Shown: in pieces, positions 3,350 through 45,207 of the stretch
How positions within the stretch are numbered: position 1 is the stretch's first letter
Layout: each line of letters starts with the position of its first letter
From: Verrucomicrobia bacterium ADurb.Bin070
Lineage (GTDB): Bacteria; Verrucomicrobiota; Kiritimatiellia; RFP12; UBA1067
Assembly: GCA_002071025.1 (NCBI GenBank)
Contig: MWEJ01000002.1
Span: 1-54,477 of the forward strand
DNA: 54,477 nucleotides
Direction of reading: 5' to 3'
The notes under the pieces: model-generated
What the model was told of the DNA's origin: nothing
Seen by the model: only the letters and a program-made list of their open reading frames with translations
Databases searched by the model: none
Position numbers and translations under genes: made by a program

Positions 3350-3370
3350 GCGCGGCTGCCGTGCGCCGGC

Positions 3371-5308: not shown

Positions 5309-5360
5309 ATAGGCCCCCTTCTCCAGTTTACCCAATACGCCAACGATACCCGGCGGCCGC

Positions 5361-6779: not shown

Positions 6780-6982
6780 GTTTTGAAGCCCCACCGATGA
6801 ATGATGCAATGAGAACCGCATCCTCAGCCGCGTCAAACGACGCTCAAACCAAGACATTGTGGCACAGGCATCGGGAATGTTCAAGCGCCCCTGGCCTCTG
6901 CATTTCGCCCACAACGATGAGTTGCCGATCTTGCGGCAAGACGGTATGCTCATTGTCACATGATGCAAGGAGCACACATCTC

Positions 6983-9417: not shown

Positions 9418-9434
9418 TTGAAATCGATCGCTCC

Positions 9435-10730: not shown

Positions 10731-10731
10731 G

Positions 10732-11526: not shown

Positions 11527-11535
11527 GAACCTATC

Positions 11536-15009: not shown

Positions 15010-15016
15010 GCCCCTC

Positions 15017-15931: not shown

Positions 15932-15935
15932 GCGG

Positions 15936-18029: not shown

Positions 18030-19076
18030 ATGATGAGTCAACGAGTCTTGGTGACAGGCGGCAGCGGATTTCTCGGGATCAACCTGATCCGGCATCTCAG
18101 GTCAAAAGGCATCACGGATATCCGCTCGATCGACCTGGTGCCGTTCGACTATCCCGAGAAGGACCAAATCCGATCGGTTGTCGGCGACATCCGCGACGTA
18201 GCGGCCTTGAAGCAGGTCATGCAAGGCGTCACTTGGGTGATCCACACGGCTGCGGCCTTGCCGCTTTATGCCGAACAGGACATCATGACCACCGACGTTG
18301 ACGGCACACGCAACGTGATGGCCGCCGCGCGCGAAGCCGGGGCCGAGCGCGCTGTCATGATCTCCTCCACGGCCGTTTACGGCATCCCCGACCACCATCC
18401 GCTTTACGAGACCGACCGACTGATCGGTGTCGGACCGTACGGACGCGCCAAAATATTGGCGGAAGAGGAGTGCCTCAAGGCGCGTGGGCAGGGCCTTTGC
18501 GTGCCGATCATCCGTCCCAAATCGTTCGTCGGCCCAGAGCGGCTCGGTGTGTTTGCCCTCTTCTATGACTGGGCCTTCACCGGTCACGGCTTCCCAATGA
18601 TCGGCAGCGGCTGCAACCGCTATCAGCTCCTCGACGTGGAGGATCTCTGCGAGGCGATCTGGCTGACACTCACGCTGGAGCCCGGCAAAGTTAACGACAC
18701 CTTCAACATCGGCGCGAAAGCGTTCACCACCATGCGCGAAGATTATCAGGCCGTACTGGATGTTGCGGGCCACGGCAAAAAAATCCGCGGATTTCCAGCC
18801 GCACCGATGATTTGGACACTGCGCTTTCTCGAACTGCTGCATCTCTCGCCGCTCTACAAATGGGTGTATGAAACCGCCTGCGAAGATTCTTTTGTCAGCA
18901 TTGAGAAAGCCGAACGTGTTCTCGGTTACGCACCGCGACACTCGAACAAAGACGCATTGATCCGCAACTATCGCTGGTACGTCGCCAATCTTGACGCCTT
19001 CAAAAACGCATCGGGCGTCTCCCATCGCGTGCCGTGGAAACAGGGTATCTTGCGTTTTGCCAAATGGTTCTTCTGA
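18030..19076 (+). CDS. NAD-dependent epimerase/dehydratase (extended SDR)
   Basis: ORF-track frame 18015..19076 (GTG). ATG 18030 is preferred (MMSQRVLVTGGSGFLG). The YxxxK pair is YGRAKILAEE. Confidence 0.8.
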   Translation: MMSQRVLVTGGSGFLGINLIRHLRSKGITDIRSIDLVPFDYPEKDQIRSVVGDIRDVAALKQVMQGVTWVIHTAAALPLYAEQDIMTTDVDGTRNVMAAAREAGAERAVMISSTAVYGIPDHHPLYETDRLIGVGPYGRAKILAEEECLKARGQGLCVPIIRPKSFVGPERLGVFALFYDWAFTGHGFPMIGSGCNRYQLLDVEDLCEAIWLTLTLEPGKVNDTFNIGAKAFTTMREDYQAVLDVAGHGKKIRGFPAAPMIWTLRFLELLHLSPLYKWVYETACEDSFVSIEKAERVLGYAPRHSNKDALIRNYRWYVANLDAFKNASGVSHRVPWKQGILRFAKWFF

Positions 19077-23113: not shown

Positions 23114-23176
23114 CCCCTCTTCCCTTTCTGTAACCCAACACATGATGTCAAAAGCAGGGCGCAAGACGCAAGACCG

Positions 23177-26100
23177 TCACCCGCGGCCATGCCCAGCGAG
23201 TGCCTCCTCCACGGCTGCTAGCAGTTCACTGGCGGGATAAGGCTTGATCAGACATTTCCACCCGTGTTGCTTGATTGACGTCCAGCGTGAGCGCTCATCG
23301 GCATAGCCGCTGGCAAACAAGAACGGCATGCGGGGATGCGCAGCGCTGATGGTTTCGGCCAAATCGACGCCGTTGCCGTCACCCAGAACAACATCGCAAA
23401 AAATCAGGTCATACGCCTCTGCCGCGTCATCCACTTCCGCAAGCGCTTCGGCCACGCTGGTTACGACGCGGGTTCTAAAACCACGGGATGCGAGAATACG
23501 TTCCGCAACCCTCGCGACCTTGTCTTGGTCTTCAACCACCAAGATCCTTGTATCCTGACGGTTGACGCAAGACGTTTTTGATCCCGCGTTTCTTTGCGCC
23601 GCAGCCTCACCTTCGGCGGCGGGGAAATAGATCGTAAAACATGTCCCCCTGCCTGGCTCCGAATCAACCCGGACCCATCCTTTCATCTGACGGACGATCC
23701 CATAGACCGTTGAGAGCCCCAACCCCGTTCCCTTGTCTTTCGGCTTCGTAGTGAAGAAGGGGTCAAAAATTTTCTTCTGAATGTGGGGCGGGATGCCGCA
23801 CCCTGTATCGGTGATCGCCAAACTGACGTATGTTCCCGGCGAGGCCTCAGGGTGCAGTCTTGCGTCGGCGGCCGTCAGCGACACGCGCGCGGTTCGCAGC
23901 GTAAGGGTGCCGCCGTCCGGCATCGCGTCGCGCGCATTGACCGCCAAGTTCAAAAGCACCTGCTCGATGTGCCCGGCATCGGCGAGAATATCCGGAGCCG
24001 TATCATCCAAAGCCAGCACGATTGCGACATCTTCGCCGAGCAACTGCGAAAGCATCCGGTGACGGCTGCCGATCTCCTGATTGAGTTGGAAGCGCGTGAT
24101 CTCCATCGGGATATTACGGCTGAACGCCAACAATTGTCCGGTTAACCGCTTGGCTCGGCTGGCGGCGCCGATGATTTCCTGGATATCTGAAGCGCGCGGA
24201 TCAGGCGGTGGGGTTTGCAGCAGGGCCAATTCGCCAAATCCCAGAATCGTCTGGAGCATGTTGTTGAAATCGTGAGCCACCCCGCCGGCCAACATGCCGA
24301 TCGTTTCCAGTTTATTGGTCTGCGACAGACGCTCTTCGAGGTTCCGCTGATCGGTGATATCGAACAAGACGGTTTGAAATTCATCAACCGCCCCATCCGG
24401 CCCGATGATCGCGCGGCTCAGACAGCGCAACTGCCGCAACTCGCCGTCGGACCTTCGCGCGCTTACCGAATACTCTGCAATCGGCCGTTCGGGCGACACC
24501 CCCAGCAGCGTACTTTCCACACGCATGCGTTGATCCTGCTGTAAAAACTGAAATACGACGTTCCCCAAGAGTTCATGGCTCGCCCGCCCCAGGAACGCGC
24601 AGACGGCGCTGTTGACAAAGGTCAATCCCCCAGCCGGAGTAAACCGGCAAATGAGCGCCGGCATATCCTCCACCAAACTCTCATAGAGATGTTCCTGCAG
24701 TTTTTTAGCCGTGATGTTCCGGGCATAAACAAGCGCACCGTTCTCATTCTGATACTTGAACGGCGCAGAGGCGACCTCGACGGTCACCGGCGTGCCGTCC
24801 AGGCGCAGCAACGTTTGCTCGGCGGCGGGCACATACTCGCGCTTTTCAATGAGCTTCGAGATACGCGCTTCGATAAAAGCGCGGGAATCCGGATGGATGA
24901 AATCCAAAACGGATCTGCCCAGCAGTTGATCGGGCGACGACGCGCCAAACAGTTCGCAGGCGGACGGGTTGAGATAGGCGAATCGCTTGTTTGCCTGAAT
25001 GAAAATCGCCTCCGGCGCCTCTTCGATCAACTGCCGAAAGCGACGTTCGCTGCTGCGGTGCTGTTCGACAGCGTGTTGCCGGGCGTCCTCCAAGCGGAGG
25101 TGTTCGATCCCGAACGCCATGTCACCGGCCAGTTCCTGGAGTAGTTCCAGCATTTCTGGCGGATGCGGCCCCGGCTCTGGCGCGATGATCGTGAGTGCGC
25201 CGATCGTGGTGCCGGACGTGATGAGCGGGAAGCAGAGCAGCGAGCGCCCCTCGTTCCGTGAAGTTCGGAGCGTTCGAAGCCATGCGTCGGAAGATTGCGT
25301 TAAGTCGTCGCAACACCGTGGCTGCCCCGCGCGGATAACACGGCTGACCAACGACTCCTTGTCCGTACCGTTTTCGATCTGCATCAGATCCAGTGTTTCC
25401 AGCGTTTTCTCCTCAAAGCCGGCCTGAGCCACAACATGAAGGGACTTCGCCGTATCTTCCCGCGTGAGGCCAACCCATGCCGCCGTATACTTCCCCTCCT
25501 CAAGAATGAGCCGACACAGTTCACCGAGCAGCGCAGCCACGTCCGTACTGCGAATCAGGATCTGATTACAGTCATACAACATGCGGAGCATACGGTTACT
25601 CCTGGCCAAATCGTCGGTTTTCCGCGCCACCTGGCGACGCAACGTGAGGCTCCACATGATGAATCCGAGCAACACCCCTGCGGCGGCACCGCCTGCGAGT
25701 CTCGCCCAATTCGGCAATCGGGAAGCGACCGTTTCAGACGTCCAGCGTTTCAGCGACGTGTAATAGATCGAGTGCGGATTCTTCTTCATGCGGATCAGAT
25801 GCCGGTCGATCGACTCCGTCAGACGAGCGCGTCCTTCGGCGGGCGCCGCAAAAAAAAGGCGAGTGGGGCTGAAGATGATCGCGGTGTCTTCCAGATTGTA
25901 GGCTCGGCTTTGCTGCATCCCGTGAAACCGGTTCACGACCACGGCATCCACCCGCCCCTGCGCCACGTCGTGAAAGGCATTACGGTAATCGGGGAACGGC
26001 AGAATCGTGACGGGCACGTCGAATCCTGAAGACACCTGTTCAAAGGCCTCTTCCTGAATCGAACCGTCCAGAACGGCGACGCGCTTTCCTGCCAAATCCA

Positions 26101-26542
26101 GCAGCGACCTGATCCCGCTGCCATTCCGCGCATACACCTGAAACCAATCTGACAAGACCGGTTCGCGGTGAAATGCGAAGCGTGTGCCTCTGGACTTTGA
26201 CTGAGCCACATCCGGCATGAGGTCGATTTCACCTGTTGCCAGGCGGTTAAGCCCCTCCATCCAGGTCCCCGGCACAAACTCGAGCGTCCAGCCTTCCTCG
26301 TCGGCAATGTGCGAAAGGATATCGATGAAGATCCCTTCAGGACGTCCCGTCGCATTCAACGCGACCTTGGGACTGTTCTCATAAACACCGACCCGCACAC
26401 ACATTTCGGAAGCGCACGTCACACTCGCGACTAAGCCTGCCAATGCCGCCCCCACAGGACCATGCAAAAGCCTGCTCGTCACATGCACCCTATCCTCAAC
26501 CGCGTTCATGAGGCCTCCTGACAGACACTTATTTTTGAGCAT
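23177..26542 (-). CDS. hybrid sensor histidine kinase/response regulator with periplasmic solute-binding (SBP_bac_3-like) domain, GAF and PAS domains
   Basis: 1121 aa. The N-terminal region (VGVYENSPKV...PEGIFIDIL...LMPDVAQS) resembles an amino-acid-type binding protein, followed by a TM segment (LAGGAAAGVLLGFIMWSL). The H-box is GGVAHDFNNMLQ. HATPase N and G boxes are LNLAVNARDAM and GTGLGLSTVYG. The receiver is ILVVEDQD...DLIFCDVVL. An alternative start is ATG 26509. Confidence 0.85.
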   Translation of the reverse strand: MLKNKCLSGGLMNAVEDRVHVTSRLLHGPVGAALAGLVASVTCASEMCVRVGVYENSPKVALNATGRPEGIFIDILSHIADEEGWTLEFVPGTWMEGLNRLATGEIDLMPDVAQSKSRGTRFAFHREPVLSDWFQVYARNGSGIRSLLDLAGKRVAVLDGSIQEEAFEQVSSGFDVPVTILPFPDYRNAFHDVAQGRVDAVVVNRFHGMQQSRAYNLEDTAIIFSPTRLFFAAPAEGRARLTESIDRHLIRMKKNPHSIYYTSLKRWTSETVASRLPNWARLAGGAAAGVLLGFIMWSLTLRRQVARKTDDLARSNRMLRMLYDCNQILIRSTDVAALLGELCRLILEEGKYTAAWVGLTREDTAKSLHVVAQAGFEEKTLETLDLMQIENGTDKESLVSRVIRAGQPRCCDDLTQSSDAWLRTLRTSRNEGRSLLCFPLITSGTTIGALTIIAPEPGPHPPEMLELLQELAGDMAFGIEHLRLEDARQHAVEQHRSSERRFRQLIEEAPEAIFIQANKRFAYLNPSACELFGASSPDQLLGRSVLDFIHPDSRAFIEARISKLIEKREYVPAAEQTLLRLDGTPVTVEVASAPFKYQNENGALVYARNITAKKLQEHLYESLVEDMPALICRFTPAGGLTFVNSAVCAFLGRASHELLGNVVFQFLQQDQRMRVESTLLGVSPERPIAEYSVSARRSDGELRQLRCLSRAIIGPDGAVDEFQTVLFDITDQRNLEERLSQTNKLETIGMLAGGVAHDFNNMLQTILGFGELALLQTPPPDPRASDIQEIIGAASRAKRLTGQLLAFSRNIPMEITRFQLNQEIGSRHRMLSQLLGEDVAIVLALDDTAPDILADAGHIEQVLLNLAVNARDAMPDGGTLTLRTARVSLTAADARLHPEASPGTYVSLAITDTGCGIPPHIQKKIFDPFFTTKPKDKGTGLGLSTVYGIVRQMKGWVRVDSEPGRGTCFTIYFPAAEGEAAAQRNAGSKTSCVNRQDTRILVVEDQDKVARVAERILASRGFRTRVVTSVAEALAEVDDAAEAYDLIFCDVVLGDGNGVDLAETISAAHPRMPFLFASGYADERSRWTSIKQHGWKCLIKPYPASELLAAVEEALAGHGRG

Positions 26543-26789
26543 ACACCATTCCGATCACGTTGTGCAATCCCCGATCCGAAGCGCCCCACATGGATATGTG
26601 ATTTTGCATGAGCGTATCCGCCTGATCATGATGTATCCCGCAGTGGCTGAACATCCCGGAATGCAAAGCGTCCACCCCAAAATACGGTCAGCTTCGGATT
26701 TACAGCACACCGTTGTTTTGTTATCCTTAACACCAATAAACCGTTCGTCAGCACTCGTGATTTGAAGGGTCAACCGTAAGGAGCCGGTC

Positions 26790-29700
26790 ATGTCGGATTT
26801 CGACCAAGAACTGCACCGTATCAACGGCAAGATCAACCGTTGGCACGCCACGGAGCATCTGATCGTGGCGGCGGCCCTTCTGCTGACCGCGTGGGTGGCG
26901 CTGACGGCACTCGATGTGTGGCTCCGCCCGCGGACTTACGGACGGCTGTCGTTGTCGCTTGTCCTGATGGCTCTGGCCGGGGCCTCGCTGGTCTGGCTGG
27001 TGCGCGTCGTCAACCGCAAGCGTTCGCCAGCCGCTGTGGCCGCGTTTCTCGAAAAAAGGTTCCCGCAACTCGACAACCACCTCATCAACCGCGTGCTCTT
27101 TGCCAGCGAGCACGCGCCCTCTTCCTGGCTGCGCACTTATTTGAATGAAGGCGTGCCGGGATTCTCCGCGTTGCCGCTGCATGAGATCAAGGATCGTCGC
27201 CTGCGCAAGCGCGGCGCGATTGCCGTGGCGGCCGCAGGGCTTTTGCTGGCCGTGCCCGCGTTCGTGCTCGGCAACGCCTGGACCGTGGCGATGCAGCGCG
27301 TGTTGAATCCCTTCTCGCGCCTTTCGCCGCCGACCTTCGCGACGGTCCTCGCGGTGACTCCGGCGAGCAAGACCATCGCGCAGGGTTCCGGCATCGACCT
27401 GGTGGTGAAGGCCACGGGACGAGCCGGTCAGTTCGTGGATTTGGACCTTTATCCGGCCGATGACAAGCGTTCAACCGTGCGGGTCGGACAGTTCAAGGCG
27501 ACCGGCGTAGAAGAGGAGTTCCCCTACCGGGTCTCTAAAATAGCCACCTCGCTCCGCTACCGGTTCAAAGTCGGCGACGCCTATCCGACAGACACCTACA
27601 CAATCGACACCGTGCCACCGTTAGCGCTCTCCAGCCTGCAGCTCACTGTCACGCCGCCCGGCTACACGTCGCTGGCACCTCTCACATTCGATGCGCTGAC
27701 CAACGCGGTTGCGATCCCAGTTCGCTCCAAAGTCACTTTTCAGATAGCCTGCAACCGACCGCTCGAGACCTCCCAGGTCCTCCTTGACAAGGAAACGTTG
27801 ACGCTGACGCCCGGCACCGACAAGGCGAACTGGTCCGGCGGCATCGTGATTACAGACGGTGCCCTCTTTCAAATTGCGGCGCGCGACACTTACGGCCTTG
27901 AAATGCGAGTGCCGGTGCGCTTTGCCCTTATCGAAGACCGCGCACCCGGTATCCGCTTGGTGATCCCTTCAGCCGCGAAAGCGGTCCTGCCGCCCAACGC
28001 CGCGCCGGTTGTGCAATTCGAGGTCAGCGATGAATACGGTCTCGGCAAGGTGCGCATGGAGCGCGTCAACAAGGGCGCTAAGCCGGGGGCCGAGGGGGAG
28101 GTCCTGAAAGAGTGGGATCTTGCCGGTCAGAAGAGTTTTACGGAAAAGTGGACCGGCTCTCTGGAAGATGTGTCGGCCTCTTCGGCCTTGCGCATCGTGG
28201 CCTGCGACACCGCCGACGGCGACGCACCCAATCGGACGGTCAGCCAGCAGATCCTGTTTGAAATGACGACGCTCTCAGCGCAGCTTGCCGCCGAGCAGCA
28301 GAACCGCGGCGACGCGCGAAAGACGATCGGCGAGCTGGTCGCGCGCCAGCGGGCCGCGCTCACCACCACCGCGCGGTTGCAAGCAGACCTGCCCGCATAC
28401 GATGAGCAGCTCTGGCAGGAGGTCGCCGACAAGCAGAAGTCGATCCGCACGTATGCCGAGACCCTGCTGACGACCAAAGACGCGGCGGTCGGCACGGCAC
28501 GCGTCGCGTTGGACAAGGCGGTTAAAGGGCCGTTACCGGACGCCACCACGCGGCTGACCCACATGGTGACGGGAACGTCGGAAACACGCGAGGAAAATGC
28601 CAAGCTTGCCGTCGACGCGCAAAACACGGTGCTGCGGCTCTTGGTGCAGGCGGACGGCAATATGAACAAGGGGGAGGTCTCACAGGCCGCTGCCGGTGTT
28701 CTGGCCATGCTGGAGGGCATCCGCAAAGGACAGACCGCCAATCTCGCTGCCACATTGAAAGCCGTAGAAAAGGCGTCCGAACTGCAGGAAGCGATCATTG
28801 ACCGGCAGGACTATCTTTCGCAGGACATGGAGGCGATGATCGGCTTCTGCCGGTCAGAGGCCAAACAAGACCGTGACGACGAAGAGTTCGGCGCCCTGAT
28901 GAGCAAGATCGCCGACCGAGCGGTTGAACTGAAACTTCACCCCACCATGGTCACGATCGCCGAGGTCATGGAATCTGAACGGATCGCGGACGCCGTGCCT
29001 CCGCAGAACAGTGTGACCAACGGTATCGCCATGCTGATGGATCTCCTCAAGGAGTGGCGCGAGACCGAGACCAAGGATAAGACTGAAGACGCACTGGCTA
29101 TTATTAAGGATGCGAGGCAGTCCATCAAAAAGATGGAGGATTTGCAGGCGCGCGTCGTGGATGCCCTGCGCGAGACTGGCGGCCAGGGAGACAAGACCGA
29201 AAAAATCGACGATGACTTGCTTGAGGAAATCGTTGAACTCAAAGCAAACATGGCGCAGGCCATGCTGAAGGTCGCCACCGACCTGCAGGCCATGCCTGAG
29301 CTGGATGCCGTCAACGAACTGGTGACCGACACCTTCCAGACGTATGAAGAGATGAAGCAGGAGGAGGGGTCCGGCACCAACGCTGTAGTCGAGGTCGGCC
29401 TGCAAAAAGAGGACTTCTTGCTCGACACACTGATCATGACCGGACAGAAGGCGGACGAGATGGAGATGTGGCTTGTCGCTAAATCTGACAACGTTAAACG
29501 CAACATGGAGACGATCGACAAGGAAGAAATGAAGGGGCCGGTCGGACAGGTGACCATGCCGGAAGAGTTGCAGGACATCATCGGCGACCTGTTGGAGTCC
29601 GAAGAAGAGCAGTCGGAAAAGGCGGATGATTCCGTGACCAATCAAGGCATGGCCAACATTGACATGGGATGGGGCATTTCCGAAGGCGAAACCGTCAGTT

Positions 29701-30365
29701 ACAGCGCGGCCGGCAAATCCGGCAACGACCGTCCTGACCACAAGGATCAGGACGGTCGCTCGCAGGTTGGGAGGCAGGGCATGTCAGACGGCGAGGTGAT
29801 GTCGCGTTCCGGCAAGATCAACGAGGGCGACAAGAATCTTGATAAACGGCGCACGCAGGACTCCAACCAATCCGGTGACGTCGAGGAAGAGGGCCATTCG
29901 GACGCCGTGGCCACGGGCGGCGGCAAGAACTCCGGTTACTCGCAGGACAAGGGGATGGAGGGCGGCGAAGGTGCCACGCGGCGCGACACCAAGGTAGAAG
30001 CCGACTCCGCCGAGAGTACGCGCGCCCAGTTGACCCGTAACGCCGAAGCGGTGTATGCCCAGGCGCAACTCAACAACCTGCGGACTTACGATCTCAAGAA
30101 GTATATTGCATTCAGCAAGCAGATCGATCTGCTGCAGAAGCAAAACGCTTCGCCGGCAATGATTGCCGAACTGCACAAGAAAGCGTTGCAGGCGCTCAGC
30201 ACCACCTACACGTCGCTGGAGAACGGTATCGGCAACGCGGACATGGGGGCGGTCAGCAATACGGAGAACGCTGCGGAAGCGATCGCCGCATCGCCGGACG
30301 AAGCACCGGCCGAATACCGCGATATGGTGTCGGATTACTTCAAAGCGATCGGCGAGATGCAATAG
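26790..30365 (+). CDS. 1191-aa membrane protein: three N-terminal TM helices, beta-rich region, long helical/coiled-coil region, acidic low-complexity tail (function unknown)
   Basis: AAGGAG at 26778-26783, 6 nt before the ATG. TM segments are LIVAAALLLTAWVALTALDVWL, LSLSLVLMALAGASLVWLV and AIAVAAAGLLLAVPAFVLG. Residues ~180-480 are beta-like (V/T-rich). Residues ~480-900 are Ala/Leu/Glu/Lys/Gln-rich helical sequence. Residues ~900-1100 are rich in D/E/G/S/K. The overall architecture loosely recalls proteins I remember as annotated DUF4175, but this is unverified. Confidence 0.6.
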   Translation: MSDFDQELHRINGKINRWHATEHLIVAAALLLTAWVALTALDVWLRPRTYGRLSLSLVLMALAGASLVWLVRVVNRKRSPAAVAAFLEKRFPQLDNHLINRVLFASEHAPSSWLRTYLNEGVPGFSALPLHEIKDRRLRKRGAIAVAAAGLLLAVPAFVLGNAWTVAMQRVLNPFSRLSPPTFATVLAVTPASKTIAQGSGIDLVVKATGRAGQFVDLDLYPADDKRSTVRVGQFKATGVEEEFPYRVSKIATSLRYRFKVGDAYPTDTYTIDTVPPLALSSLQLTVTPPGYTSLAPLTFDALTNAVAIPVRSKVTFQIACNRPLETSQVLLDKETLTLTPGTDKANWSGGIVITDGALFQIAARDTYGLEMRVPVRFALIEDRAPGIRLVIPSAAKAVLPPNAAPVVQFEVSDEYGLGKVRMERVNKGAKPGAEGEVLKEWDLAGQKSFTEKWTGSLEDVSASSALRIVACDTADGDAPNRTVSQQILFEMTTLSAQLAAEQQNRGDARKTIGELVARQRAALTTTARLQADLPAYDEQLWQEVADKQKSIRTYAETLLTTKDAAVGTARVALDKAVKGPLPDATTRLTHMVTGTSETREENAKLAVDAQNTVLRLLVQADGNMNKGEVSQAAAGVLAMLEGIRKGQTANLAATLKAVEKASELQEAIIDRQDYLSQDMEAMIGFCRSEAKQDRDDEEFGALMSKIADRAVELKLHPTMVTIAEVMESERIADAVPPQNSVTNGIAMLMDLLKEWRETETKDKTEDALAIIKDARQSIKKMEDLQARVVDALRETGGQGDKTEKIDDDLLEEIVELKANMAQAMLKVATDLQAMPELDAVNELVTDTFQTYEEMKQEEGSGTNAVVEVGLQKEDFLLDTLIMTGQKADEMEMWLVAKSDNVKRNMETIDKEEMKGPVGQVTMPEELQDIIGDLLESEEEQSEKADDSVTNQGMANIDMGWGISEGETVSYSAAGKSGNDRPDHKDQDGRSQVGRQGMSDGEVMSRSGKINEGDKNLDKRRTQDSNQSGDVEEEGHSDAVATGGGKNSGYSQDKGMEGGEGATRRDTKVEADSAESTRAQLTRNAEAVYAQAQLNNLRTYDLKKYIAFSKQIDLLQKQNASPAMIAELHKKALQALSTTYTSLENGIGNADMGAVSNTENAAEAIAASPDEAPAEYRDMVSDYFKAIGEMQ

Positions 30366-30396
30366 TGTGCGGACGAGCCGCTCAAGGAGTCGTGTG

Positions 30397-32694
30397 GTGT
30401 TGAAGATTAGAGAGAAGACCGTCCCCCTCAAACGAAAAAGGTTGGACCGTCGTTGTGCGAGGCACCTTCCATTCTTCTTTATATCCGTCACGCTGTTCGC
30501 AGCCGGGCGGAGCGGGGCGCAGCAAGAGGCGTGGGCCGTACCCGGCGCGGCGCTGCGGGTAGACGTGACCGTCTCGCGTGAGCCTGACCATCCCGATCTG
30601 GGTGTTTTCGTTAAGATCCCCAACGGGGGCCTGTTACCCGGCAAATTCCGCATCCCTGATGTGCGCGACGCTCAGGGTAAACAGTTGGAAAGTCTCATTG
30701 TCGCGGACTCACAAACCGACGGTTTCGGAGTGCTGTTCGCCAAGCCTGGCGACGGGGAGACCGCTACGGTCTATATCACACCTTCCGCCAGTGCGCCACC
30801 GCGGCCTGCGAGCACGCGTCTTTTCCCGGCGACCTTTTTCTTTTCAAAAAACGGCAACGCCAGTCTCGAAGTGGCCAAGCGAATGGAGCGGGATTATCCG
30901 CCCGCACAAGGCGCATCGTTCGACGAATGGGATTATGGCATCGGATCGATGGTCAACCCCTTCGGCCCTGATGATGATTTTTCCACGTGGATTGTCGGCG
31001 CGTTTTTTTTGGAAAAGAAGGAGCGTATCTATTTTTGCACGATTTCGGATGAAGGTTCCGAGTTCGCGATCAACGGCAAGACGGTCCACAGTTGGCCCGG
31101 GATCCATACGCGGCAAGGCGGCGCCAAAGGGCAGCGCGGCGATTGGGTTGAACTTGGACCAGGACTGCACCGTATCGACTACTATCACTTCGAAAAAACC
31201 GGCCCTCAGGAAATCAACCTCTGCTGGAAGCGTCCCGGCATGGAGACGAAAGACGGGTTGCCGGAGCATGTGTCCGGACTCGCCCAGTCGGGACGGGCCG
31301 ACATCAAACGGATCGCGTTCAAGGACGGTCGCGTCGCGGGTGTCATCCGCGGCAACACCCAACGACTCGGCTATTACTGGATTGGTGAAAAGCCGCTGGT
31401 TTTGTTCGCGCTTTCGTACGGCGCGGTAACGCCGTCGGACACGCAGTCTGTCACATGGGAGTTCCCCCCCAACAAGCGCTTTGCCGAACCCGCGATTGAC
31501 TGGCTGGTTTCGGGGGACCCCGACACCATTTCCTATCCCGTTACGCTAGCCGTTTCTAATGCGGCGGGGCTCGCACGAACCACGGTGCACATGCGCTGTT
31601 TCTGGACCCCTCCCGCGCTCTCGTTGGACACCAAGAGCGACCGGCTCACGGTGAGAAAAGCCCTTTATGACATGTTGCGCGCTGTTCCTCAACCTGCCGA
31701 TCCCTGCGCTGACTGGAGCAACGATCACTGGGGCATGCTGATCGAACTGCTGGAACCCTATAACGCCGGTCCGATTCTGATCGAGCTTTTCAACCGCGGC
31801 TTCGACACGCTGCAGAAAAGGCCCGCCGAAGAGCGTTGGGTTTTGGAAGACCGATTCATTGAGACGCTGCGTCTGCAACGCAAAGACAAGCTCCTGCTGG
31901 ACTGGATCGCACGGCTGGAGAAAAACGAGAGAACCAGCGCGCGTAAATTTCGCTGGAAAGATGAGCGGGTGTGCGCCTATCTGTTTGACATCAACAATCC
32001 TGCGGCAGCCAAACGCGAAGTCGTGTTTTTAAAAGAAACGGCGATCGCACCGGACCAGACACAACTCGCGGCACTGCGCCAAGGGGATGTCGAGCGGGCT
32101 CTCGGTAATTATGACGCTGCCATGAAGTTCTACAAGGATGCGCAAGACCGATTCAGAAGCCGCAATAAAGTCGGCATGGCCGGCGGACGCTTGACGTATG
32201 TGGGAGCCCGCAAGCGGCGCGACGCCGAGCCCGAAACCAACACGACCGCCAAGGCGTCATCCAAGCGGCCTGCGATGCAGAGTCTCGCCTCGAGGATGAA
32301 GGTGGACGACTGGAAGGTCTATACCGTGCATGATGCGTCCATGTATGCAACGATCACGAGCTTCCTCGCCCAAGATGCGTTGCCGGAAGCCTTTCAGAAG
32401 CTGACCGATTGGGAGAACGAATCGCCTGCCTCCAAGCTCTCCGGAGACTACCCGATGGCGGAAGCCCGGGTTTATCTCTCTGTCGGTGATCTGCGCCGCG
32501 CGGTCAATGCGTTGGCGACCTATCGCAAGAGCGTGACCATGAGCGCCCAGCTCGCGGACGCCATGAAGCTGGAGATTGAGTGCCTGCAACAGCTCAACGA
32601 CAAAACACGTATCAAAGAAATCGCCGCTGATTTTGTTCAACGCTTCCCGGGGCATCCCTATGAAGCAGCCATGAAAGAGGTGCTCGCGCCATGA
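30397..32694 (+). CDS. secreted protein with PA14-like domain and C-terminal TPR-like helical repeats
   Basis: ORF-track frame 30163..32694 overlaps the previous gene. The start is placed at GTG 30397 (alternatives GTG 30394, TTG 30400) after AAGGAG at 30384-30389. The signal peptide is HLPFFFISVTLFAAGRSGAQQ. The PA14-like block is FCTISDEGSEFAINGKTVHSW...WVELGPGLHRIDYYHFEKTGPQEINLCWKRPG (about nt 30980-31240). The C-terminal third is helical, with ALGNYDAAMKFYKDA-type repeats. Confidence 0.6.
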   Translation: MLKIREKTVPLKRKRLDRRCARHLPFFFISVTLFAAGRSGAQQEAWAVPGAALRVDVTVSREPDHPDLGVFVKIPNGGLLPGKFRIPDVRDAQGKQLESLIVADSQTDGFGVLFAKPGDGETATVYITPSASAPPRPASTRLFPATFFFSKNGNASLEVAKRMERDYPPAQGASFDEWDYGIGSMVNPFGPDDDFSTWIVGAFFLEKKERIYFCTISDEGSEFAINGKTVHSWPGIHTRQGGAKGQRGDWVELGPGLHRIDYYHFEKTGPQEINLCWKRPGMETKDGLPEHVSGLAQSGRADIKRIAFKDGRVAGVIRGNTQRLGYYWIGEKPLVLFALSYGAVTPSDTQSVTWEFPPNKRFAEPAIDWLVSGDPDTISYPVTLAVSNAAGLARTTVHMRCFWTPPALSLDTKSDRLTVRKALYDMLRAVPQPADPCADWSNDHWGMLIELLEPYNAGPILIELFNRGFDTLQKRPAEERWVLEDRFIETLRLQRKDKLLLDWIARLEKNERTSARKFRWKDERVCAYLFDINNPAAAKREVVFLKETAIAPDQTQLAALRQGDVERALGNYDAAMKFYKDAQDRFRSRNKVGMAGGRLTYVGARKRRDAEPETNTTAKASSKRPAMQSLASRMKVDDWKVYTVHDASMYATITSFLAQDALPEAFQKLTDWENESPASKLSGDYPMAEARVYLSVGDLRRAVNALATYRKSVTMSAQLADAMKLEIECLQQLNDKTRIKEIAADFVQRFPGHPYEAAMKEVLAP

Positions 32695-33587
32695 TGACAT
32701 TCCGTATAGCAGCCCGTGCGGCAGGCGCTCTGCTGGTCGTTCTCGCGGCAACGCTGGCAGGCGCGGCGATCAAAATCGATCCCGGCAACATGTCGCCCTA
32801 TAGCAAAACCAAGGTCGGCATCAACCTGTATTCCAAACCCGATCCCTCGGCCGGAGGCGGCTTGCGCGGCATGATCGCCGGCAATCCATCCGAGGTGCTC
32901 GGCGTTCTGGCCATGCCTCAAAAATTCCCACACATTTCTGCACTGTCGGATGTGGAGGGCGGCGGCTCCACCAAGAATGCGCGCAACATCAACAAAGACA
33001 TGACCAATCAGGTCTATCTCGCCGCGTTGGGCGCGAATAATGCGTTCTCCTTCTACGGGTTGCCGCCCGGAAAATATGATCTTTTTGTGCTGTGCGAGAA
33101 CTGTTTTTACGAAGGCCTGCTGCTCTCGCGCGAACCGAACACATTGGCCGATCCTGACGTGCGCGCGATCAAAGCGAAGGTCAACGAGTCCAATCCTTTT
33201 TTCAACGTTAAAAACCAGCACCGCATCGAAGGGCAGGGCGGAACCTTTGGTAAAGCACGCGTTTTGGAACAGGAAGTCCGGACCCTGCCGGTCACCCTGC
33301 AAAGCGCCGAAGTCCTGAAGCACATACAAATCCGCAGCATCAAGCTCTGCCTGATGGAAAGTGTCGGGACCAGTAAGCTAGGCACCCATTGGGAGATGAA
33401 AAAGACCCGCGAGATCGCACGTCAGGAAATGGGCCCCCCCGACACCAAAGGACTGATTCCCGGCTACTTCTGCAAGCCGCTCCAAGGCATCCGCGTGGCG
33501 ACCTCTGTGAAGGATTTGGGGACGATCACGTTGGCCAGCGATCCCGCCCCCGGGACATCTGCCGTGCCAGCCCAAGAATCACGTTAA
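32691..33587 (+). CDS. secreted protein of unknown function
   Basis: 298 aa. The ATG overlaps the upstream stop (ATGATGA). The signal peptide is MMTFRIAARAAGALLVVLAATLAGAA. The segment FSFYGLPPGKYDLFVLCE resembles strands of carboxypeptidase-regulatory/prealbumin-like folds. Confidence 0.5.
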   Translation: MMTFRIAARAAGALLVVLAATLAGAAIKIDPGNMSPYSKTKVGINLYSKPDPSAGGGLRGMIAGNPSEVLGVLAMPQKFPHISALSDVEGGGSTKNARNINKDMTNQVYLAALGANNAFSFYGLPPGKYDLFVLCENCFYEGLLLSREPNTLADPDVRAIKAKVNESNPFFNVKNQHRIEGQGGTFGKARVLEQEVRTLPVTLQSAEVLKHIQIRSIKLCLMESVGTSKLGTHWEMKKTREIARQEMGPPDTKGLIPGYFCKPLQGIRVATSVKDLGTITLASDPAPGTSAVPAQESR

Positions 33588-33617
33588 GTCTGTCTGACAA
33601 TAAAGGAACACACACAC

Positions 33618-35003
33618 ATGGCAAAGTTATTCTTGCAACAGCCCGAGGGCGACCAATTGCTGACCGAACTCGCGCCGACCCAACCCTATCTGATCGGGCG
33701 CAGCGAAGACTGTTCTATCTGCATCCCCGTCGAAGCGATTTCCAGCCGGCACGCGCAACTCACCCCCGTCGACGAGGGCTGGATTCTTGAAGACCTGAAC
33801 AGTTCCAATGGAACGACAGTCAACGGGCAGACGTTGGGCAAGGCGATTCTCGCCAGCGGATGCCAGATCATTCTTGGCGGGCAGGTTGTTTTGCTCTTCA
33901 TTGAAGAACCTGCCGCTGAGCAAGCGAGCGAGCCTGCCGCCGCAGAAGCGCAGCCTGCCGTAAAAAAAGGCCGGCGCGAACTGAAGGTGCAGGGGGCGTC
34001 GGAAGAAGATCTCAAGCTCGTTAAGGCGATGTCGCTGCGCTCCGAGAAGATCCGGACGGAAATCGCCAAGGTCATCATCGGACAGGTCGACATCATCGAC
34101 CAAGTGATGATGGTCATCATCGCAGGCGGGCACGGTCTGCTTGTCGGTATGCCCGGCATGGCCAAAACCACGCTCTGCGCCACGATCGCCAAGGTGCTCG
34201 ACATGGAGTTTAAGCGCGTCCAATTCACGCCGGATTTGATGCCCACCGACATCACCGGCACCGAGATCCTGGAACACGACCCCGTGACGGACAAAAAGAG
34301 CTTCCGGTTTATCAAGGGGCCGATTTTCACCAACATGCTGCTGGCCGACGAAATCAACCGTACGCCGCCCAAGACTCAAGCCTCCCTGCTGGAAGCCATG
34401 CAGGAAAAATGCGTAACGGTCGGGAATCAGACTTACAAGCTCGACGCCCCCTTCTTTGTGCTCGCCACGCAGAATCCGATCGAACAGGAGGGCACCTACC
34501 CGCTGCCGGAAGCGCAGCAAGACCGTTTTATGTTCAACCTGTGGGTGGATTACCCAAAAGAGGACGAGGAAGAGACCGTGGTGAAGGCAACCACCGTTGC
34601 CAAAAGTGAACAACCTCAGAAGGTCATCACCAAGGACGAACTGCTCCAGCTCCAAGCTGTGGTGCGAAAGATTCCTGTATCCGATCACGTCATCAAATAT
34701 GCCGTCCGCCTCGTGCGCGCCACGCGGCCCCAAGACGAGAAAAGCCCGGATTTCATTAAGAAGTATGTCTCAAACGGTGCAGGCCCGCGTGCCGGACAGT
34801 TCCTCGTGATGGCAGCCAAAGCGCGTGCCGTGCTGGAAGGTCGAATCCACGTAAGCTGTGGCGATGTCGTGAAAGCAGCGGTGCCGGTGCTGCGCCACCG
34901 CATCATCGCTAACTTCGCGGCCGACTCAGAAGGACTCTCGACGACCGCTATTGTCGAGCGTTTGCTCAAGGCGGTCGAACAGCCCGACGACAAGGACTAT
35001 TGA
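33618..35003 (+). CDS. FHA domain fused to MoxR-class AAA+ ATPase (AAA_3)
   Basis: 461 aa. The N-terminal FHA pattern is YLIGRSEDCSICIP...ISSRHAQL...WILEDLNSSNGTTVNGQ. MoxR blocks are Walker A GMPGMAKT, Walker B LLADEINRTPPKTQASLLEAMQE and FFVLATQNPIEQEGTYPLPEAQQDRF. Confidence 0.85.
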   Translation: MAKLFLQQPEGDQLLTELAPTQPYLIGRSEDCSICIPVEAISSRHAQLTPVDEGWILEDLNSSNGTTVNGQTLGKAILASGCQIILGGQVVLLFIEEPAAEQASEPAAAEAQPAVKKGRRELKVQGASEEDLKLVKAMSLRSEKIRTEIAKVIIGQVDIIDQVMMVIIAGGHGLLVGMPGMAKTTLCATIAKVLDMEFKRVQFTPDLMPTDITGTEILEHDPVTDKKSFRFIKGPIFTNMLLADEINRTPPKTQASLLEAMQEKCVTVGNQTYKLDAPFFVLATQNPIEQEGTYPLPEAQQDRFMFNLWVDYPKEDEEETVVKATTVAKSEQPQKVITKDELLQLQAVVRKIPVSDHVIKYAVRLVRATRPQDEKSPDFIKKYVSNGAGPRAGQFLVMAAKARAVLEGRIHVSCGDVVKAAVPVLRHRIIANFAADSEGLSTTAIVERLLKAVEQPDDKDY

Positions 35004-35092
35004 CGTCGAACGCGTGCTGTCATCCCTTCACAGCCGCCCTCCCCTTTACGTGATCCGTTCGTCCTCCCCCTTCATGTTGGTTTGGAGTGCCT

Positions 35093-35350
35093 ATGACCGC
35101 AGAATCATCTGATACCGTATTTCTGTCTTTTGTCTGTCCCGCATGCAATCAAGAAATCGAGGCGCCGGCTGAAATAGCCGGGAGAGAGAGTGAATGTCCG
35201 GCGTGTGCGGCCCCGATTACTGTACCCTCAACTTCAGAACCGGGCACACTGTGGGCTTCGCAGCCCCTCTCCAAAAGCGGCCCCACGCAGGCCCAGCGTG
35301 ACGCCATGAAAAGCCGCACCATTCGTATTGAACTCCCTGAGAGTTGGTAA
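35093..35350 (+). CDS. small double-CxxC zinc-ribbon protein
   Basis: ORF-track frame 35087..35350 (GTG). ATG 35093 lies 5 nt after GGAG. The sequence FVCPACNQEIEAPAEIAGRESECPACAAPITVP carries four Cys residues as two CPAC knuckles. Confidence 0.55.
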   Translation: MTAESSDTVFLSFVCPACNQEIEAPAEIAGRESECPACAAPITVPSTSEPGTLWASQPLSKSGPTQAQRDAMKSRTIRIELPESW

Positions 35351-37790: not shown

Positions 37791-40700
37791 TTAGGGCGAA
37801 TTGGTAATGACCAGAATCGGCTTACTGAACCTCGGGTCTTCATACTCGATGACCCATCGCATGAAGAGCTGGCCGCCGTTGGCATCCGCGAACTCATCAA
37901 GCAAGAATGGATTCTGAATAAACACGCGGGTGGTGTGATTGCTGTCGAACGACTCAGGAGCCAGCTTATACTGCGCCAGCATCGTCCACTCCGGCTTGGT
38001 CAGACTGTCTTTGGCCGAGATCTTGAATACGGCGTCACCAAACACGTGATCCCCCAGCAAGCTGGGCACATTGGTCCCATTCAACGCCAACCACGCGGTC
38101 ATGAAGTAGTTGGTTGTCGCCTCTTCGCGCTCTACCTTCAGGATGCCGCCCTCCAAATAATTCGTCGTCGTCGGATTGGCATTCAGCCAATAACGTTCGT
38201 ACAACTCCAATTCACGCCCGTAGTAATACGTAGGCGCCAACGGCTGGTCACCGAAACTCAGCAACCACGTCATAATGTCAGTCCCCAAATTCAGATCGCT
38301 GACATCCTGACGCAGCCCGAACGTGACGGCAATCGTCAGGTTGGTCTGCACGTGGTTCAGCGGCAGATTAAACGTCTCAACCTCGCCGCCAGTCAGATGC
38401 TCGACGCCGTTCACGGTGACCGACTTGATGCGATACCAGCTATCCGCTTCGTACAGGATATTCGTAGACCCGTCCCGGCGCACTTTGAACGCCAAGGGCG
38501 TCACGCGCTTGCCGTTCTGCACACCGTGCAGCGGCGTGAGCGACGAAACCACAACCACATTCGAGACCCCGGGCGCCAGCACGTTAAAGTCTTCAACCGT
38601 TTGCCCCACATTCAAACCGCCGGGTGTCCATGCCACCTGATTGGTCCAATCCGACACCAACGGCAAGGCATACCGCACGGAGTTCGTCAACACGCTCAGC
38701 GAACCGCCCTGTCCTTCTGTTCCGATATACTCAAACCGGAGATCAGGATGCGCGGCCGCCCACTCCGCGCCTGAATACGACCCGCCCCACTCCGGGCGGC
38801 GGTCATACACAACCGAGTGCTCGTACATACCCCAAGGGCGGCGCAAGCGGATCCCCAACGGCTTGCTGTTCGGGAATTTACCCGCAAAGTTCAGGTCGCT
38901 GTAATCCAGCTTCGGCAACGGCGGAACAACCCCCGCGATTTCTTCAGGCGGCACACTGGGATCTTGCCCGACCACGAAAAAGGCGTAGCCGTTCGTGACC
39001 GGCTGCTGTTCCGGCAGCGTCCCCATAAACGAAATGGTATACACGGGGTCGTATTCATTCGACGGGACCAGATCAAGATGCCAACCGGAAAGGCTGATTT
39101 CGGCAGGCACGGCGATCTCCACATACTTGTTTTGGCCGATATGCGCAGTCCCGCCTTCATAGACCTCGTACGCGTTGATCTCGTTCAGCCACACTGCGCC
39201 GACCGGCACATCGTACACGATGTAGTAAGCCGCCCAGCCGCCCGTCGAGGCAAACCGCTGATTCAAATCCACCGGATAATACCACGACGGCACGGTAAAG
39301 ACACTTTGATAGGCTTCCAGTTCAGTCTGCGCGGCATCCTCGTAGGTCGCCCGGACACGGAACTGAACGACCTGGTTCTTCTCTTGCGGAGAGACCACAT
39401 TGAACAGGTCCGTACGGTAAAGATGATTTTCCGCATCGTGCAGGTCCATCTCCAACGTGGCCACTTCTGCAGCCGGCCAGTTGTCAACGCCCCAGACGTT
39501 GGTCCCGACATAATAATCGACATACAGCCGAATGTTCTGCGGGGAGAGGCGGAGATTGCTCAGTTGCGCTTCGAAACCGACCTCGTCGGAGTGCAGCGGC
39601 TGGAAACGTTCCTCACTGAACCCGCCGCCCTCGACGCACAGGGCCCGCACATTGACGATCTCGAAACCGGGCAGGACCGGCTCGGTGACCGCAAGTTCCT
39701 CGACGCACACACGCTGACCGCCGCCCGTAGTCGGAATCACAAGCTTGGCGGCACGATAGGCCCGTCCGTCCGCCGGCACAAACGAGTACGTTTCATAGAG
39801 CTGGTTCGTGATCAGATAGGTGTGCGCCAACTGCCAGTCCGCATCCGGCGCGCGCGGCCCTGCGGCATGCGACGTGACATACAAATAAACGGCTGCGGGC
39901 GAGCTGGCATACATGCGCGCCATGAAGGTCAACGAGCCCAGGCCCGTCGGCAGCAGGGGTGTCTTCACGAAAGCCTCAGGATACAGGATCTGGTACGGGT
40001 CCGTCTCGAGAGTCTGGCTGTTGTTCAGGAAAAGGGCTTTTGTCTCATCCAGCATCACCCGCATCGGATCCGTATCGGTCACCTTCACATTGTACGCCCG
40101 CCAGTCCGCGTCATCCACGTCCGGTTCATCCCACACCACGGCATTGTCGATTTCCACAAGCGCATTGGTATAGATCCCGCTCCGGTCGTTCAGCACTCTC
40201 AGGTAGCCGGAAATGTTGGTGCCGAGGTAGGCGAGTTCATGGTTGAAAGAGGACATCGCCGTATTCACCACCACGGTCTGAATGCCGCTCCACAACGAGC
40301 TGTCCCACGACGGGGCAAACTGAACGACGAGCCGGGCAGGCGGCCGAACGACCCGATAATCGAACTCCAGCATGCCGGTGCCATTCACCATCCGCGGCGC
40401 CCTGACCGCTTGGTCCAGCCACTCGCCCTCGACGCCCAGCGAATCGATCTCGCGCCCGCCGCGCATGTGGTCAAGCTGCACCGTTTTCACCGACGTGCGC
40501 AGGAACGTCCCGGACCCCGTATCCTGAAGGGGCACCCAGGTCAGCCCATTATTCCGGCTGTAGGCCACCCCATAGCCGCCGAAAAGCCCGCCTCCGGCAG
40601 GCCCGACCCGGCCATCCGAGCCGCAGCCGAGCCGCAGTTCGAAGGGATACCAGCCCGTGCCGAGATACGCGAATGCTTCGGATGACGGGGTTTCCGTGTC

Positions 40701-45046: not shown

Positions 45047-45207
45047 AACACTCCTAAGTCCGCTTTTTATCAACCCGTATTGTCTCTTATCTCACCACAG
45101 GTGGCAAGGGTTTTTATCCGTCTTTTTTCGCTTGCGAATCCATCATGAATCCTGTGAAATAGGTCACAATTGTTTCTTCCATAGAAGGTTAAGAAGGATT
45201 CTCTCTT

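Follow-up and report, generated by a model that had tools for sequence, protein, structure and literature searches.

The 54,477-nt stretch of DNA analysed here (the window) includes five genes, A to E, which share a strand and are separated by 31, -4, 30 and 89 nt, an arrangement that had been described in the original prediction and that was confirmed when the ORFs and spacers were rechecked. Shine-Dalgarno sequences of the AGGAG type lie 5' of A, B and D, with weaker ones 5' of C (AGAGG) and E (GGAG).

26699..26727, + strand: promoter-like site within the 247-nt divergent intergenic region 5' of A (consensus scan, 9/12 match)
26790..30365, + strand: gene A, 1191 aa (ORF)
30397..32694, + strand: gene B, 765 aa, GTG start (ORF; domains from Pfam matches of homologues and from a profile compared with the PDB)
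32691..33587, + strand: gene C, 298 aa (ORF; overlaps B by 4 nt)
33618..35003, + strand: gene D, 461 aa (ORF, Pfam)
33687-33878, + strand: FHA domain of D, residues 24-87 (PF00498, 64.7 bits)
34131-34535, + strand: AAA_3 domain of D, residues 172-306 (Pfam, 203.8 bits; cut-off 27)
34761-34961, + strand: AAA_lid_2 domain of D, residues 382-448 (Pfam, 55.1 bits; cut-off 22.7)
35093..35350, + strand: gene E, 85 aa (ORF; 2xCPAC zinc ribbon, weak Zn-ribbon matches only)

Proteins encoded by genes A to D

A is a predicted inner-membrane protein with tandem Ig-like domains and a large extracytoplasmic part. Its hydrophobic helices (residues 25-43, 53-71 and 142-160) form a TM hairpin (25-71) and a third TM segment (TM3), separated by a conserved basic loop (76-141) that contains an invariant FPQLDNHLIN motif and is probably cytoplasmic. 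In the AF2 model (pLDDT 74), a large ectodomain follows TM3: residues 185-492 form Ig-like domains in tandem and residues 495-947 helical bundles, after which come a Gly/Ser/Asp-rich segment (948-1073) and a set of C-terminal helices; by region-wise conservation the 948-1073 segment is highly conserved though predicted to be disordered. Hydrophobicity and the model agree with the three TM helices followed by beta-rich, helical and acidic-tail regions that had been attributed to A, the tail being acidic and Gly-rich. Foldseek searches with the model returned tandem-Ig matches only, no vWA fold was found in A by AF2 modelling and Foldseek, and the DVSAS motif at residue 459 falls inside an Ig-like domain. 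All 91 homologues of A were from Kiritimatiellia/PVC, and at E<=1e-10 the family counts 9,990 representative clusters.

A appears to be distantly related to DUF4175 (PF13779). This profile matched the A orthologues P0071/72/76 (28.7-40.1 bits) and P0432 (31.6 bits) above the cut-off of 27.3, with partial coverage restricted to the Ig-like region and to profile positions of about 182-320 out of 825. P0071/72/76 (best, 40.1 bits) are 45-49% identical to A over its full length. The A protein of the window had no match to PF13779 at E<=0.1, and most A-family members tested gave none.

B, for which gene callers on identical contigs also gave 765 aa, has a signal peptide, an N-terminal beta region, a PA14 domain (~188-290), a PKD/Ig domain (~316-399) and TPR-like repeats (~543-712). 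Pfam searches with the window's B alone gave sub-threshold TPR matches and no PA14; its homologues matched PA14, PKD and TPR, with PA14 (PF07691) in 4 of 22 (best E 7.7e-5). The B family profile matched the PDB entries 6qe7 (E 1.2e-5) and 6qdi for PA14, 6aem (E 3.8e-5) for PKD and TPR-like structures, with neither vWA nor DUF58 among the matches. The signal peptide, PA14 and TPR elements originally read in B were hence recovered, together with a PKD domain.

C, whose anticipated signal peptide was corroborated, had no sequence match in Pfam, NCBIfam or the PDB. Its AF2 model (pLDDT 82, pTM 0.79), all-beta plus one helix, contains a signal helix, a beta-sandwich (residues 56-141) and a helix-on-antiparallel-sheet domain (154-280), and a Foldseek search of the PDB gave nothing better than E 0.035 and no vWA match. 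C is thus predicted to be a secreted protein of no known family, with a fold that appears novel from the model. The claim that A, B and C hide no vWA or DUF58 fold stood up to AF2 modelling and Foldseek for A and C and to the profile comparison with the PDB for B.

D is a cytoplasmic FHA-fused MoxR AAA+ ATPase and a predicted phosphothreonine reader, its domain assignment as FHA plus AAA_3 being upheld by Pfam. In aligned homologues K183/T184 and D244, belonging to the Walker A (GMPGMAKT) and Walker B (LLADEINR) motifs, are invariant, and the FHA residues G27, R28, S42, H45, S62, N64 and G65 are invariant in 44/44 fusions. The solved structures closest to the N-terminus of D were mycobacterial FHA domains, and the closest to its AAA+ part (residues 143-453) was 2R44 (E 4e-82), a 331-residue chain deposited as 'uncharacterized protein'.

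A ten-gene cluster in PVC relatives and its split in the window's subclade

Among the 48 related loci with >=5.5 kb downstream of A, 32 contain A-B-C-D in this order, with B directly after A and C kept between B and D. The conserved part of the proposed five-gene unit is therefore a same-strand module of four genes, and E does not belong to it. E was found only in the three loci of the nearest relatives (L018, L020 and L026), is absent from L005 and L028, in which a glycosyltransferase gene lies ~60 nt past D, and is called as a gene in some identical contigs only. E is a lineage-specific accessory outside the conserved core.

The genes A to D make up the distal half of a ten-gene envelope cluster that is widespread among PVC bacteria, being conserved in Kiritimatiellota, Verrucomicrobiota and Lentisphaerota. 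The full order, DUF4159 – X1 – DUF58 – BatA/vWA – GATase1-like – X2 – A – B – C – FHA-MoxR, was identified by tblastn in 17 of the 36 related PVC loci with sufficient flank on both sides, the remainder containing A-D alone (7), A alone (8) or the upstream half plus A (4); for L003/L004 the order was read from precomputed Pfam labels. Full clusters occur in L007, L008 and L009, whose A proteins are 76-77% identical to that of the window, and in L013 (A 74% identical) X1 to X2 lie directly 5' of A on a contig that stops 28 nt past A. In over 40 loci X2 is the gene immediately 5' of A. Each full cluster has a single MoxR match, always D.

The upstream half encodes a lipoprotein-like DUF4159 protein, two secreted proteins, X1 (about 250-280 aa) and X2 (about 285 aa), a cytoplasmic DUF58 protein with a DxSxS motif (VYLLVDRSGSM), a membrane vWA protein, BatA, with an intact DASYS MIDAS (VAIVLDASYSM), and a GATase1-like membrane protein. 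The MIDAS D/S/S residues and the cytoplasmic loop QRRxTV..F.T.RFLK..RSSSR are >=90% conserved in 119 BatA orthologues. A is also linked to a MoxR in an alternative architecture, with the order FHA-less MoxR – 1166 aa – A – 1265 aa. In one lineage BatA-GATase1-like-X2 occurs without neighbouring DUF4159, X1 or DUF58, which makes it less certain that the components must always function together. The cluster is prone to fragmentation.

In the window's subclade the cluster is interrupted between X2 and A, with the DUF58/vWA half relocated to another site. In two split-type MAGs, whose A proteins share 80% and 74% identity with that of the window, this half is on a different contig of the same bin: A-D on DAOPZC010000102 (L006) with DUF4159 to X2 on DAOPZC010000004 (L082), and A-D on CAZKZI010000038 (L035) with the other half on CAZKZI010000065 (L107), placement in the same genome resting on MAG binning. 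In three lineages the detached half was found in the same conserved gene neighbourhood, carB ... TsaD. No MoxR was detected within 10 kb of the detached DUF58/vWA halves, and the BatA and A proteins of the same genomes are about equally identical to those of L007.

In the window itself, tblastn with two orthologous query sets detected no vWA, DUF58, BatA, DUF4159 or GATase1-like gene in the 54 kb (best E 0.07), and Pfam scans found none of these domains in the remaining ORFs. The original observation that no vWA or DUF58 gene lies nearby consequently extends to the entire window. The window's MoxR seems to be without a vWA partner because the operon is split, and DUF58 and BatA are, judging from the relatives, probably encoded elsewhere in the genome of this organism. 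The promoter-like site at 26699..26727 might mark the 5' end that the module acquired through the split, a weak suggestion given that the site itself is weak and that four such sites were found 5' of A against 2.6 expected, which is not above chance.

From the same missing neighbours the original prediction had derived a Bat-like system with no vWA or DUF58 partner, with A, B and C as direct targets of the FHA-MoxR and PA14/TPR modules in place of vWA. Such an autonomous A-B-C-D(-E) system accommodates the gene content of the window, the lack of a vWA fold in A or C, the 7/36 loci with A-D but no upstream half and the separation of BatA from DUF58 in one related lineage, which implies that the parts can uncouple. 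We nevertheless consider it improbable: DUF58 and BatA lie directly upstream, in one operon with B and C, in 17/36 loci, including the 76-77% identical relatives, D is the sole MoxR available to them there, the split-type MAGs retain the DUF58/vWA half with its MIDAS intact, and E is not conserved. B and C therefore accompany vWA proteins, and neither their replacing vWA nor the lack of a partner could be sustained.

The two halves may instead have become independent after the split, A-B-C-D as a self-sufficient phospho-regulated envelope module and the DUF58/BatA half with another MoxR or none, as could be argued from the stability of the split arrangement, with its carB ... TsaD context in three lineages, and from the occurrence of A alone or with a different MoxR. 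This seems unlikely, since no other MoxR adjoins the detached halves, the similar identities of BatA and A to L007 give no hint of relaxed or changed function, and bacterial genes that function together are often found apart. The best explanation overall, to which we assign a probability of roughly 0.7, is that A-B-C-D is the detached half of a ten-gene Bat-like envelope cluster with D as its single motor.

Relation to known MoxR systems

The 'broadly conserved operon' RL3499-RL3502 of Rhizobium leguminosarum has its MoxR gene first and also encodes DUF58 and two BatA-N/GATase1-like membrane proteins, and in alphaproteobacteria DUF4175/DUF4159 genes are located near operons of this type. Unlike the PVC cluster, RL3499-RL3502 is not known to include FHA or B or C. 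It has been placed with the Bat clusters of MoxR, DUF58 and vWA/BatA-type proteins (PMC5700661), and its mutation leads to cell-morphology and envelope-integrity defects, according to the title of a study cited there (Vanderlinde 2011).

The PVC cluster is a specific variant of these poorly understood MoxR/DUF58/vWA Bat (RL3499-type) systems. With the Bat operons (the Bacteroides fragilis aerotolerance operon, Borrelia BB0170-BB0176 and Leptospira bat) it shares one MoxR AAA_3 protein, DUF58, a MIDAS-containing BatA-type membrane vWA protein, secreted or membrane proteins with TPR, large beta-rich envelope proteins and a vWA domain facing the periplasm, as in BB0173, a BatA-type protein with three TM helices (PMC5700661). 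B, as a predicted secreted protein, would represent the TPR-containing partner typical of Bat and RL3499-type systems. The PVC cluster differs from Bat in having its MoxR at the 3' end and fused to FHA, a single BatA instead of a BatA/BatB pair, and the additional DUF4159, GATase1-like, X1, X2, DUF4175-like A, PA14/PKD/TPR B and putatively novel-fold C proteins; no BatD, BatE or SH3 matches were seen in it, and in the window it is moreover split. Deletion of bat in Leptospira gave no phenotype (PMC3557215), which counts against a settled role even for the Bat family.

MoxR ATPases typically work with vWA proteins (PMC9976466, PMC13036017), and in NorQ-NorD, RavA-ViaA and CbbQ-CbbO a hexameric MoxR with a vWA(-like) adaptor remodels its target (PMC9976466, PMC13036017, PMC6987120), a principle that may also apply here. 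Their targets are cytoplasmic or membrane enzymes, whereas the PVC system seems to act on structural proteins of the envelope, and NorQ, RavA and CbbQ lack the FHA domain of D. Actinobacterial Esr/PFNA-type clusters resemble the PVC cluster in tying MoxR/vWA to Ser/Thr phosphorylation through FHA (bioRxiv 10.64898/2026.09.08.750141; PMC8430577), but their FHA domain is a protein of its own, downstream of a kinase and phosphatase encoded in the cluster, and their sensor and effector parts differ; in the PVC cluster FHA is fused to the ATPase, with no linked kinase. Searches for Ser/Thr kinases and PP2C near the cluster showed no consistent linkage, with three sporadic matches in all and none in the window.

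The cluster could also be read as a MoxR-vWA biological-conflict or threat-sensing system (the ternary systems of Kaur/Aravind; the Esr pathway of actinobacteria) whose signalling output is FHA, since such systems join MoxR, vWA, kinases and FHA proteins (PMC7159879; bioRxiv 10.64898/2026.09.08.750141) and D has a secondary match to bpMoxR (PF20030, 42.8 bits). We regard it as highly improbable because AAA_3 scores far higher in D, whose closest structure over the AAA+ part is 2R44, the window and the full clusters contain no beta-propeller sensor, effector domain or kinase, there was no PADLOC match, and the partners are a housekeeping-type DUF58/BatA/GATase1-like set in conserved chromosomal contexts.

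Proposed mechanism and role of the cluster

As a detached half of a Bat-like cluster, A-B-C-D would contribute D as the single AAA+ motor of the whole ten-gene system. Through its FHA domain D would sense threonine phosphorylation by a kinase whose gene lies elsewhere, and the cytoplasmic DUF58 protein would serve as the adaptor for D. Together, D and DUF58 may engage the membrane subunits A, BatA and GATase1-like at their conserved cytoplasmic loops, driving the assembly or remodelling of a periplasmic scaffold composed of A (through its Ig/helical ectodomain), BatA (through its vWA domain, which would face the periplasm), B, C, X1, X2 and DUF4159, in which B (PA14/PKD/TPR) probably binds glycan and protein.

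The FHA fusion on D is the one unusual feature of the cluster, and the novelty of this PVC variant lies in that invariant fusion and in the A-B-C module. The role of the cluster is likely to be cell-envelope maintenance. More tentatively, and with considerable doubt, the FHA-MoxR could be a MoxR chaperone under the direct control of Ser/Thr-kinase signalling, the first of its kind, coupling cytoplasmic phosphorylation to a PVC-specific periplasmic scaffold (A with its conserved but disordered docking segment, B, C and the BatA vWA domain), and in fragmented lineages the A-B-C-D half may also act without DUF58/vWA.

Gene content of the window

The five same-strand ORFs of the original prediction were reproduced with their coordinates, spacers (31, −4, 30 and 89 nt) and SD-like sequences (AAGGAG, AAGGA or GGAG upstream of the ORFs). 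In identical public contigs the gene callers agree on the models of A to D, and E is called on about half.

Features of the A–E operon
26790-30365, plus strand: A, 1191 aa
30397-32694, plus strand: B, GTG start, 765 aa
32691-33587, plus strand: C, 298 aa, 4-nt overlap with B
33618-35003, plus strand: D, FHA-MoxR, 461 aa
35093-35350, plus strand: E, 85 aa

The FHA and AAA_3 domains of D were recovered by Pfam (64.7 and 203.8 bits, respectively), together with AAA_lid_2 (55.1 bits). The absence of a vWA or DUF58 gene from the window was also borne out, since tblastn with two orthologous query sets (best E 0.07) detected no gene for a vWA protein, DUF58, BatA (the membrane vWA protein with a MIDAS), DUF4159 or the GATase1-like protein in the 54 kb, and Pfam scans of the remaining window ORFs returned none of these. 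The possibility that A, B or C hides a vWA or DUF58 domain was rejected on the structural models of A and C and the B-family profile, none of which revealed such a domain against the PDB.

Divergent from A, a minus-strand gene (23177-26542) encodes a 1121-aa hybrid histidine kinase with SBP_bac_3, GAF, two PAS, HisKA, HATPase and REC domains. It was rejected as a regulator of the module, being missing from locus L020 (A 97% identical to that of the window), where a GH97 gene directly abuts A; the kinase is therefore a strain-level indel. Just upstream of kinase and module lie convergent GH97 glycoside hydrolase paralogues (19034-21082, plus; 21299-23164, minus). On the far side, a 2061-aa secreted protein without Pfam match (37791-43976, minus) adjoins a protein whose N-terminus bears a prepilin-type methylation motif (44048-45073, minus). 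LarA lactate racemase, EtfB, EtfA and an FAD-linked oxidase, encoded on one strand at 9393-14131, look like an electron-bifurcating lactate-utilisation cluster. At 14001-16000, over the polyprenyl synthase and RmlD-like genes, the GC content rises locally to 0.695, compared with about 0.62 on either side. Three large consecutive ORFs without Pfam match (423, 668 and 538 aa; 2072-6977, minus) may include shadow ORFs, the 423-aa one overlapping a plus-strand Dus gene.

Gene order in related loci and the detached half

Every homologue of A came from a Kiritimatiellia or other PVC MAG. The first distant homologue inspected, P0089 (31% identical to A), belongs to an operon with DUF58 and BatA/vWA genes, in the order DUF4159 – 251 aa – DUF58 – BatA/vWA – GATase1-like – A – B-like – C-like – FHA-MoxR. 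Profiling by tblastn of 76 loci, one genome per species, from Kiritimatiellia, Verrucomicrobiota, Lentisphaerae, Chthoniobacterales and one Omnitrophota bin yielded the ten-gene consensus DUF4159 – X1 – DUF58 – BatA – GATase1-like – X2 – A – B – C – D, X1 and X2 being secreted proteins.

Arrangements in the 36 loci with sufficient flank on both sides
Full set: 17/36
A-B-C-D only (window type): 7/36
Upstream half plus A: 4/36, Chthoniobacterales
A alone: 8/36, mostly rumen Kiritimatiellae, A flanked by unrelated genes

The original prediction had envisaged an autonomous Bat-like system in which PA14/TPR modules replace the vWA components, and the lack of a partner in the window had suggested as much. 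This reading is contradicted by the full loci of relatives (17 of the 36), in which B and C sit with DUF58 and BatA, and by the retention of the DUF58/vWA half elsewhere in MAGs of the split type; B and C accompany vWA proteins and do not substitute for them. The expectation that the five genes co-occur in other genomes held for A-B-C-D, which recur in this order; it failed for E, which is present in the nearest relatives only and was discarded as a core component.

L007, L008 and L009, which are closely related to the window (A 76-77% identical), carry the full set, and in L013 (74%) the genes from X1 onward directly precede A, just after which the contig stops. The split form is found in the nearest relatives, namely L020, L005/L026/L028 (88%), L019/L006 (80%), L011 (77%) and L015 (70%), so the break between X2 and A arose within the window subclade. 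The four Chthoniobacterales loci that combine the upstream half with A (L069/L074/L076/L079) have a divergently oriented B-like gene ahead of DUF4159 (about 1-630, minus), and in them B-C-D do not follow A. An additional B-like paralogue follows D in L070 (18194-19795). An alternative architecture surrounds an A homologue (43% identical) on the 849-kb contig JBMNHG010000003.1 (L001/L051), in the order MoxR without FHA (332 aa), 1166-aa protein, A and 1265-aa protein with FlgD_ig, with no B, C, DUF58 or BatA within 10 kb.

The BatA of L007 has many homologues of 73-92% identity in this clade. One of them, P0111, lies on DAOPZC010000004.1 in the series DUF4159 – X1 – DUF58 – BatA – GATase1-like – X2, followed by unrelated genes on the opposite strand, and the same MAG carries A-B-C-D on DAOPZC010000102.1 (L006). 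A second MAG is alike, with the half on CAZKZI010000065.1 (L107) and A-D on CAZKZI010000038.1 (L035, A 74%); the same-genome evidence for the two halves comes from these MAG bins of relatives. The same location of the detached half, between carB (upstream) and TsaD (downstream), recurs in further assemblies, and another context was also seen. The detached BatA retains a canonical MIDAS (VAIVLDASYSM), the DUF58 protein has VYLLVDRSGSM, and conservation of the BatA MIDAS residues reaches at least 90% across 119 orthologues. In the P0151 lineage (L089-L095), a 423-aa protein and a GFO_IDH_MocA oxidoreductase precede BatA-GATase1-like-X2, with no adjacent DUF4159, X1 or DUF58, so that further fragmentation is possible. 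The P0151 BatA shares 76% identity with its L007 counterpart, about the value expected of the window lineage; its cluster holds 59 member sequences from anaerobic-digester metagenomes.

Each cluster has one DUF58, one BatA-vWA and one MoxR; in the full clusters the sole MoxR is D. No MoxR was found within 10 kb of any detached half examined. That the two halves have been functionally independent since the split is unlikely, the detached half having no alternative MoxR to accompany it.

Conserved features of the module proteins

Protein A, without Pfam family match, belongs to a very large family, counted at 9,990 representative clusters (E<=1e-10). Some of its orthologues exceed the gathering score for DUF4175, over part of the profile, and A itself gives no match. 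The AF2 model (58-sequence alignment, pLDDT 74) comprises N-terminal TM helices, a helical loop (80-133), a third TM helix, tandem Ig-like domains (185-492, pLDDT about 90), helical bundles (495-947) and C-terminal helices. Foldseek matched it to tandem-Ig proteins only, and the sequence profiles of A and C gave nothing informative against the PDB. The loop is strongly basic and therefore probably cytoplasmic by the positive-inside rule; containing an invariant FPQLDNHLIN, it is the second most conserved part of A. Most conserved is the stretch 948-1073 (window 29631-30008), where 39 of 126 columns reach 95% conservation or more in 58 homologues; Gly, Ser, Asp, Glu, Lys and Arg abound in it (…DQDGRSQVGRQGMSDGE…ATGGGKNSG…). 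Residues 947-1073 have pLDDT <50 in the AF2 model, which predicts the stretch to be disordered throughout, and it looks like a candidate fold-on-binding interface.

Searched alone with Pfam, B gave sub-threshold TPR matches only. The PA14 domain originally proposed for B was upheld by its homologues, 4 of 22 of which match PF07691, and by the B-family profile, which matches the PA14 of 6qe7 (E 1.2e-5) as well as PKD (6aem, E 3.8e-5) and TPR-like structures. C was modelled confidently (pLDDT 82, pTM 0.79) as a signal helix followed by a beta-sandwich and a helix-on-sheet domain, with no Pfam family match and no PDB match better than E 0.035. E gave weak zinc-ribbon matches.

The AAA+ part of D is closest to 2R44, deposited as an 'uncharacterized protein' (E 4e-82), and mycobacterial FHA domains are the nearest match of its N-terminal FHA. 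No aligned homologue departs from the Walker A and B residues. The FHA is strongly constrained, its canonical pThr-binding residues being invariant in 44/44 fusions. The proposed check for Ser/Thr kinases and PP2C phosphatases, run on module neighbourhoods, showed none to be consistently linked, with 3 sporadic matches among most loci (L096-L111 excluded) and none in the window, the tblastn queries being approximate PknB and PstP sequences. A conflict or defence role, such as that of bpMoxR systems, is unlikely; the AAA_3 score is far above that of bpMoxR and no propeller or effector domain is present, and this candidate was dismissed on domain content and the absence of any PADLOC match.

A probable split MoxR-DUF58-vWA envelope cluster

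The module is part of a Bat/RL3499-type MoxR-DUF58-vWA envelope cluster, a known and mechanistically obscure kind, and its apparent lack of a vWA/DUF58 partner probably results from the operon split. MoxR ATPases typically partner vWA proteins (PMC9976466, PMC13036017), and one BatA-type protein resides in the inner membrane with its vWA turned towards the periplasm (PMC5700661). According to its title, Vanderlinde 2011, cited in PMC5700661, ascribes envelope and morphology defects to RL3499-RL3502 mutation; deletion of the Leptospira bat genes was without phenotype (PMC3557215). In our literature search we came across no description of the A-B-C module, of a MoxR fused to an FHA domain or of the ten-gene PVC cluster, and no mention of DUF4159 together with DUF58, and DUF4175 turned up only for the unrelated Acinetobacter AdvA.

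We propose that D may be the motor for the entire system, with a pThr mark serving for its recruitment or gating. D and the cytoplasmic DUF58 would act on the conserved loops that A, BatA and the GATase1-like protein expose to the cytoplasm, and this action would assemble or remodel a periplasmic scaffold of the A ectodomain, BatA vWA, B, C, X1, X2 and DUF4159. As a candidate ligand that folds on binding, the conserved disordered segment of A might engage the MIDAS, for instance.

A partner gene missing from a 54-kb window is not evidence of a system without that partner. Bat/RL3499-type clusters are widespread and their molecular function is obscure; the PVC version, with ten genes, a single motor fused to an FHA domain and partners that are secreted or in the membrane, offers as handles for their study a regulatory input via the FHA domain, A, B and C as candidate client or scaffold proteins, and two candidate interfaces in A that stand out by their conservation, the FPQLDNHLIN cytoplasmic loop and the disordered segment 948-1073.
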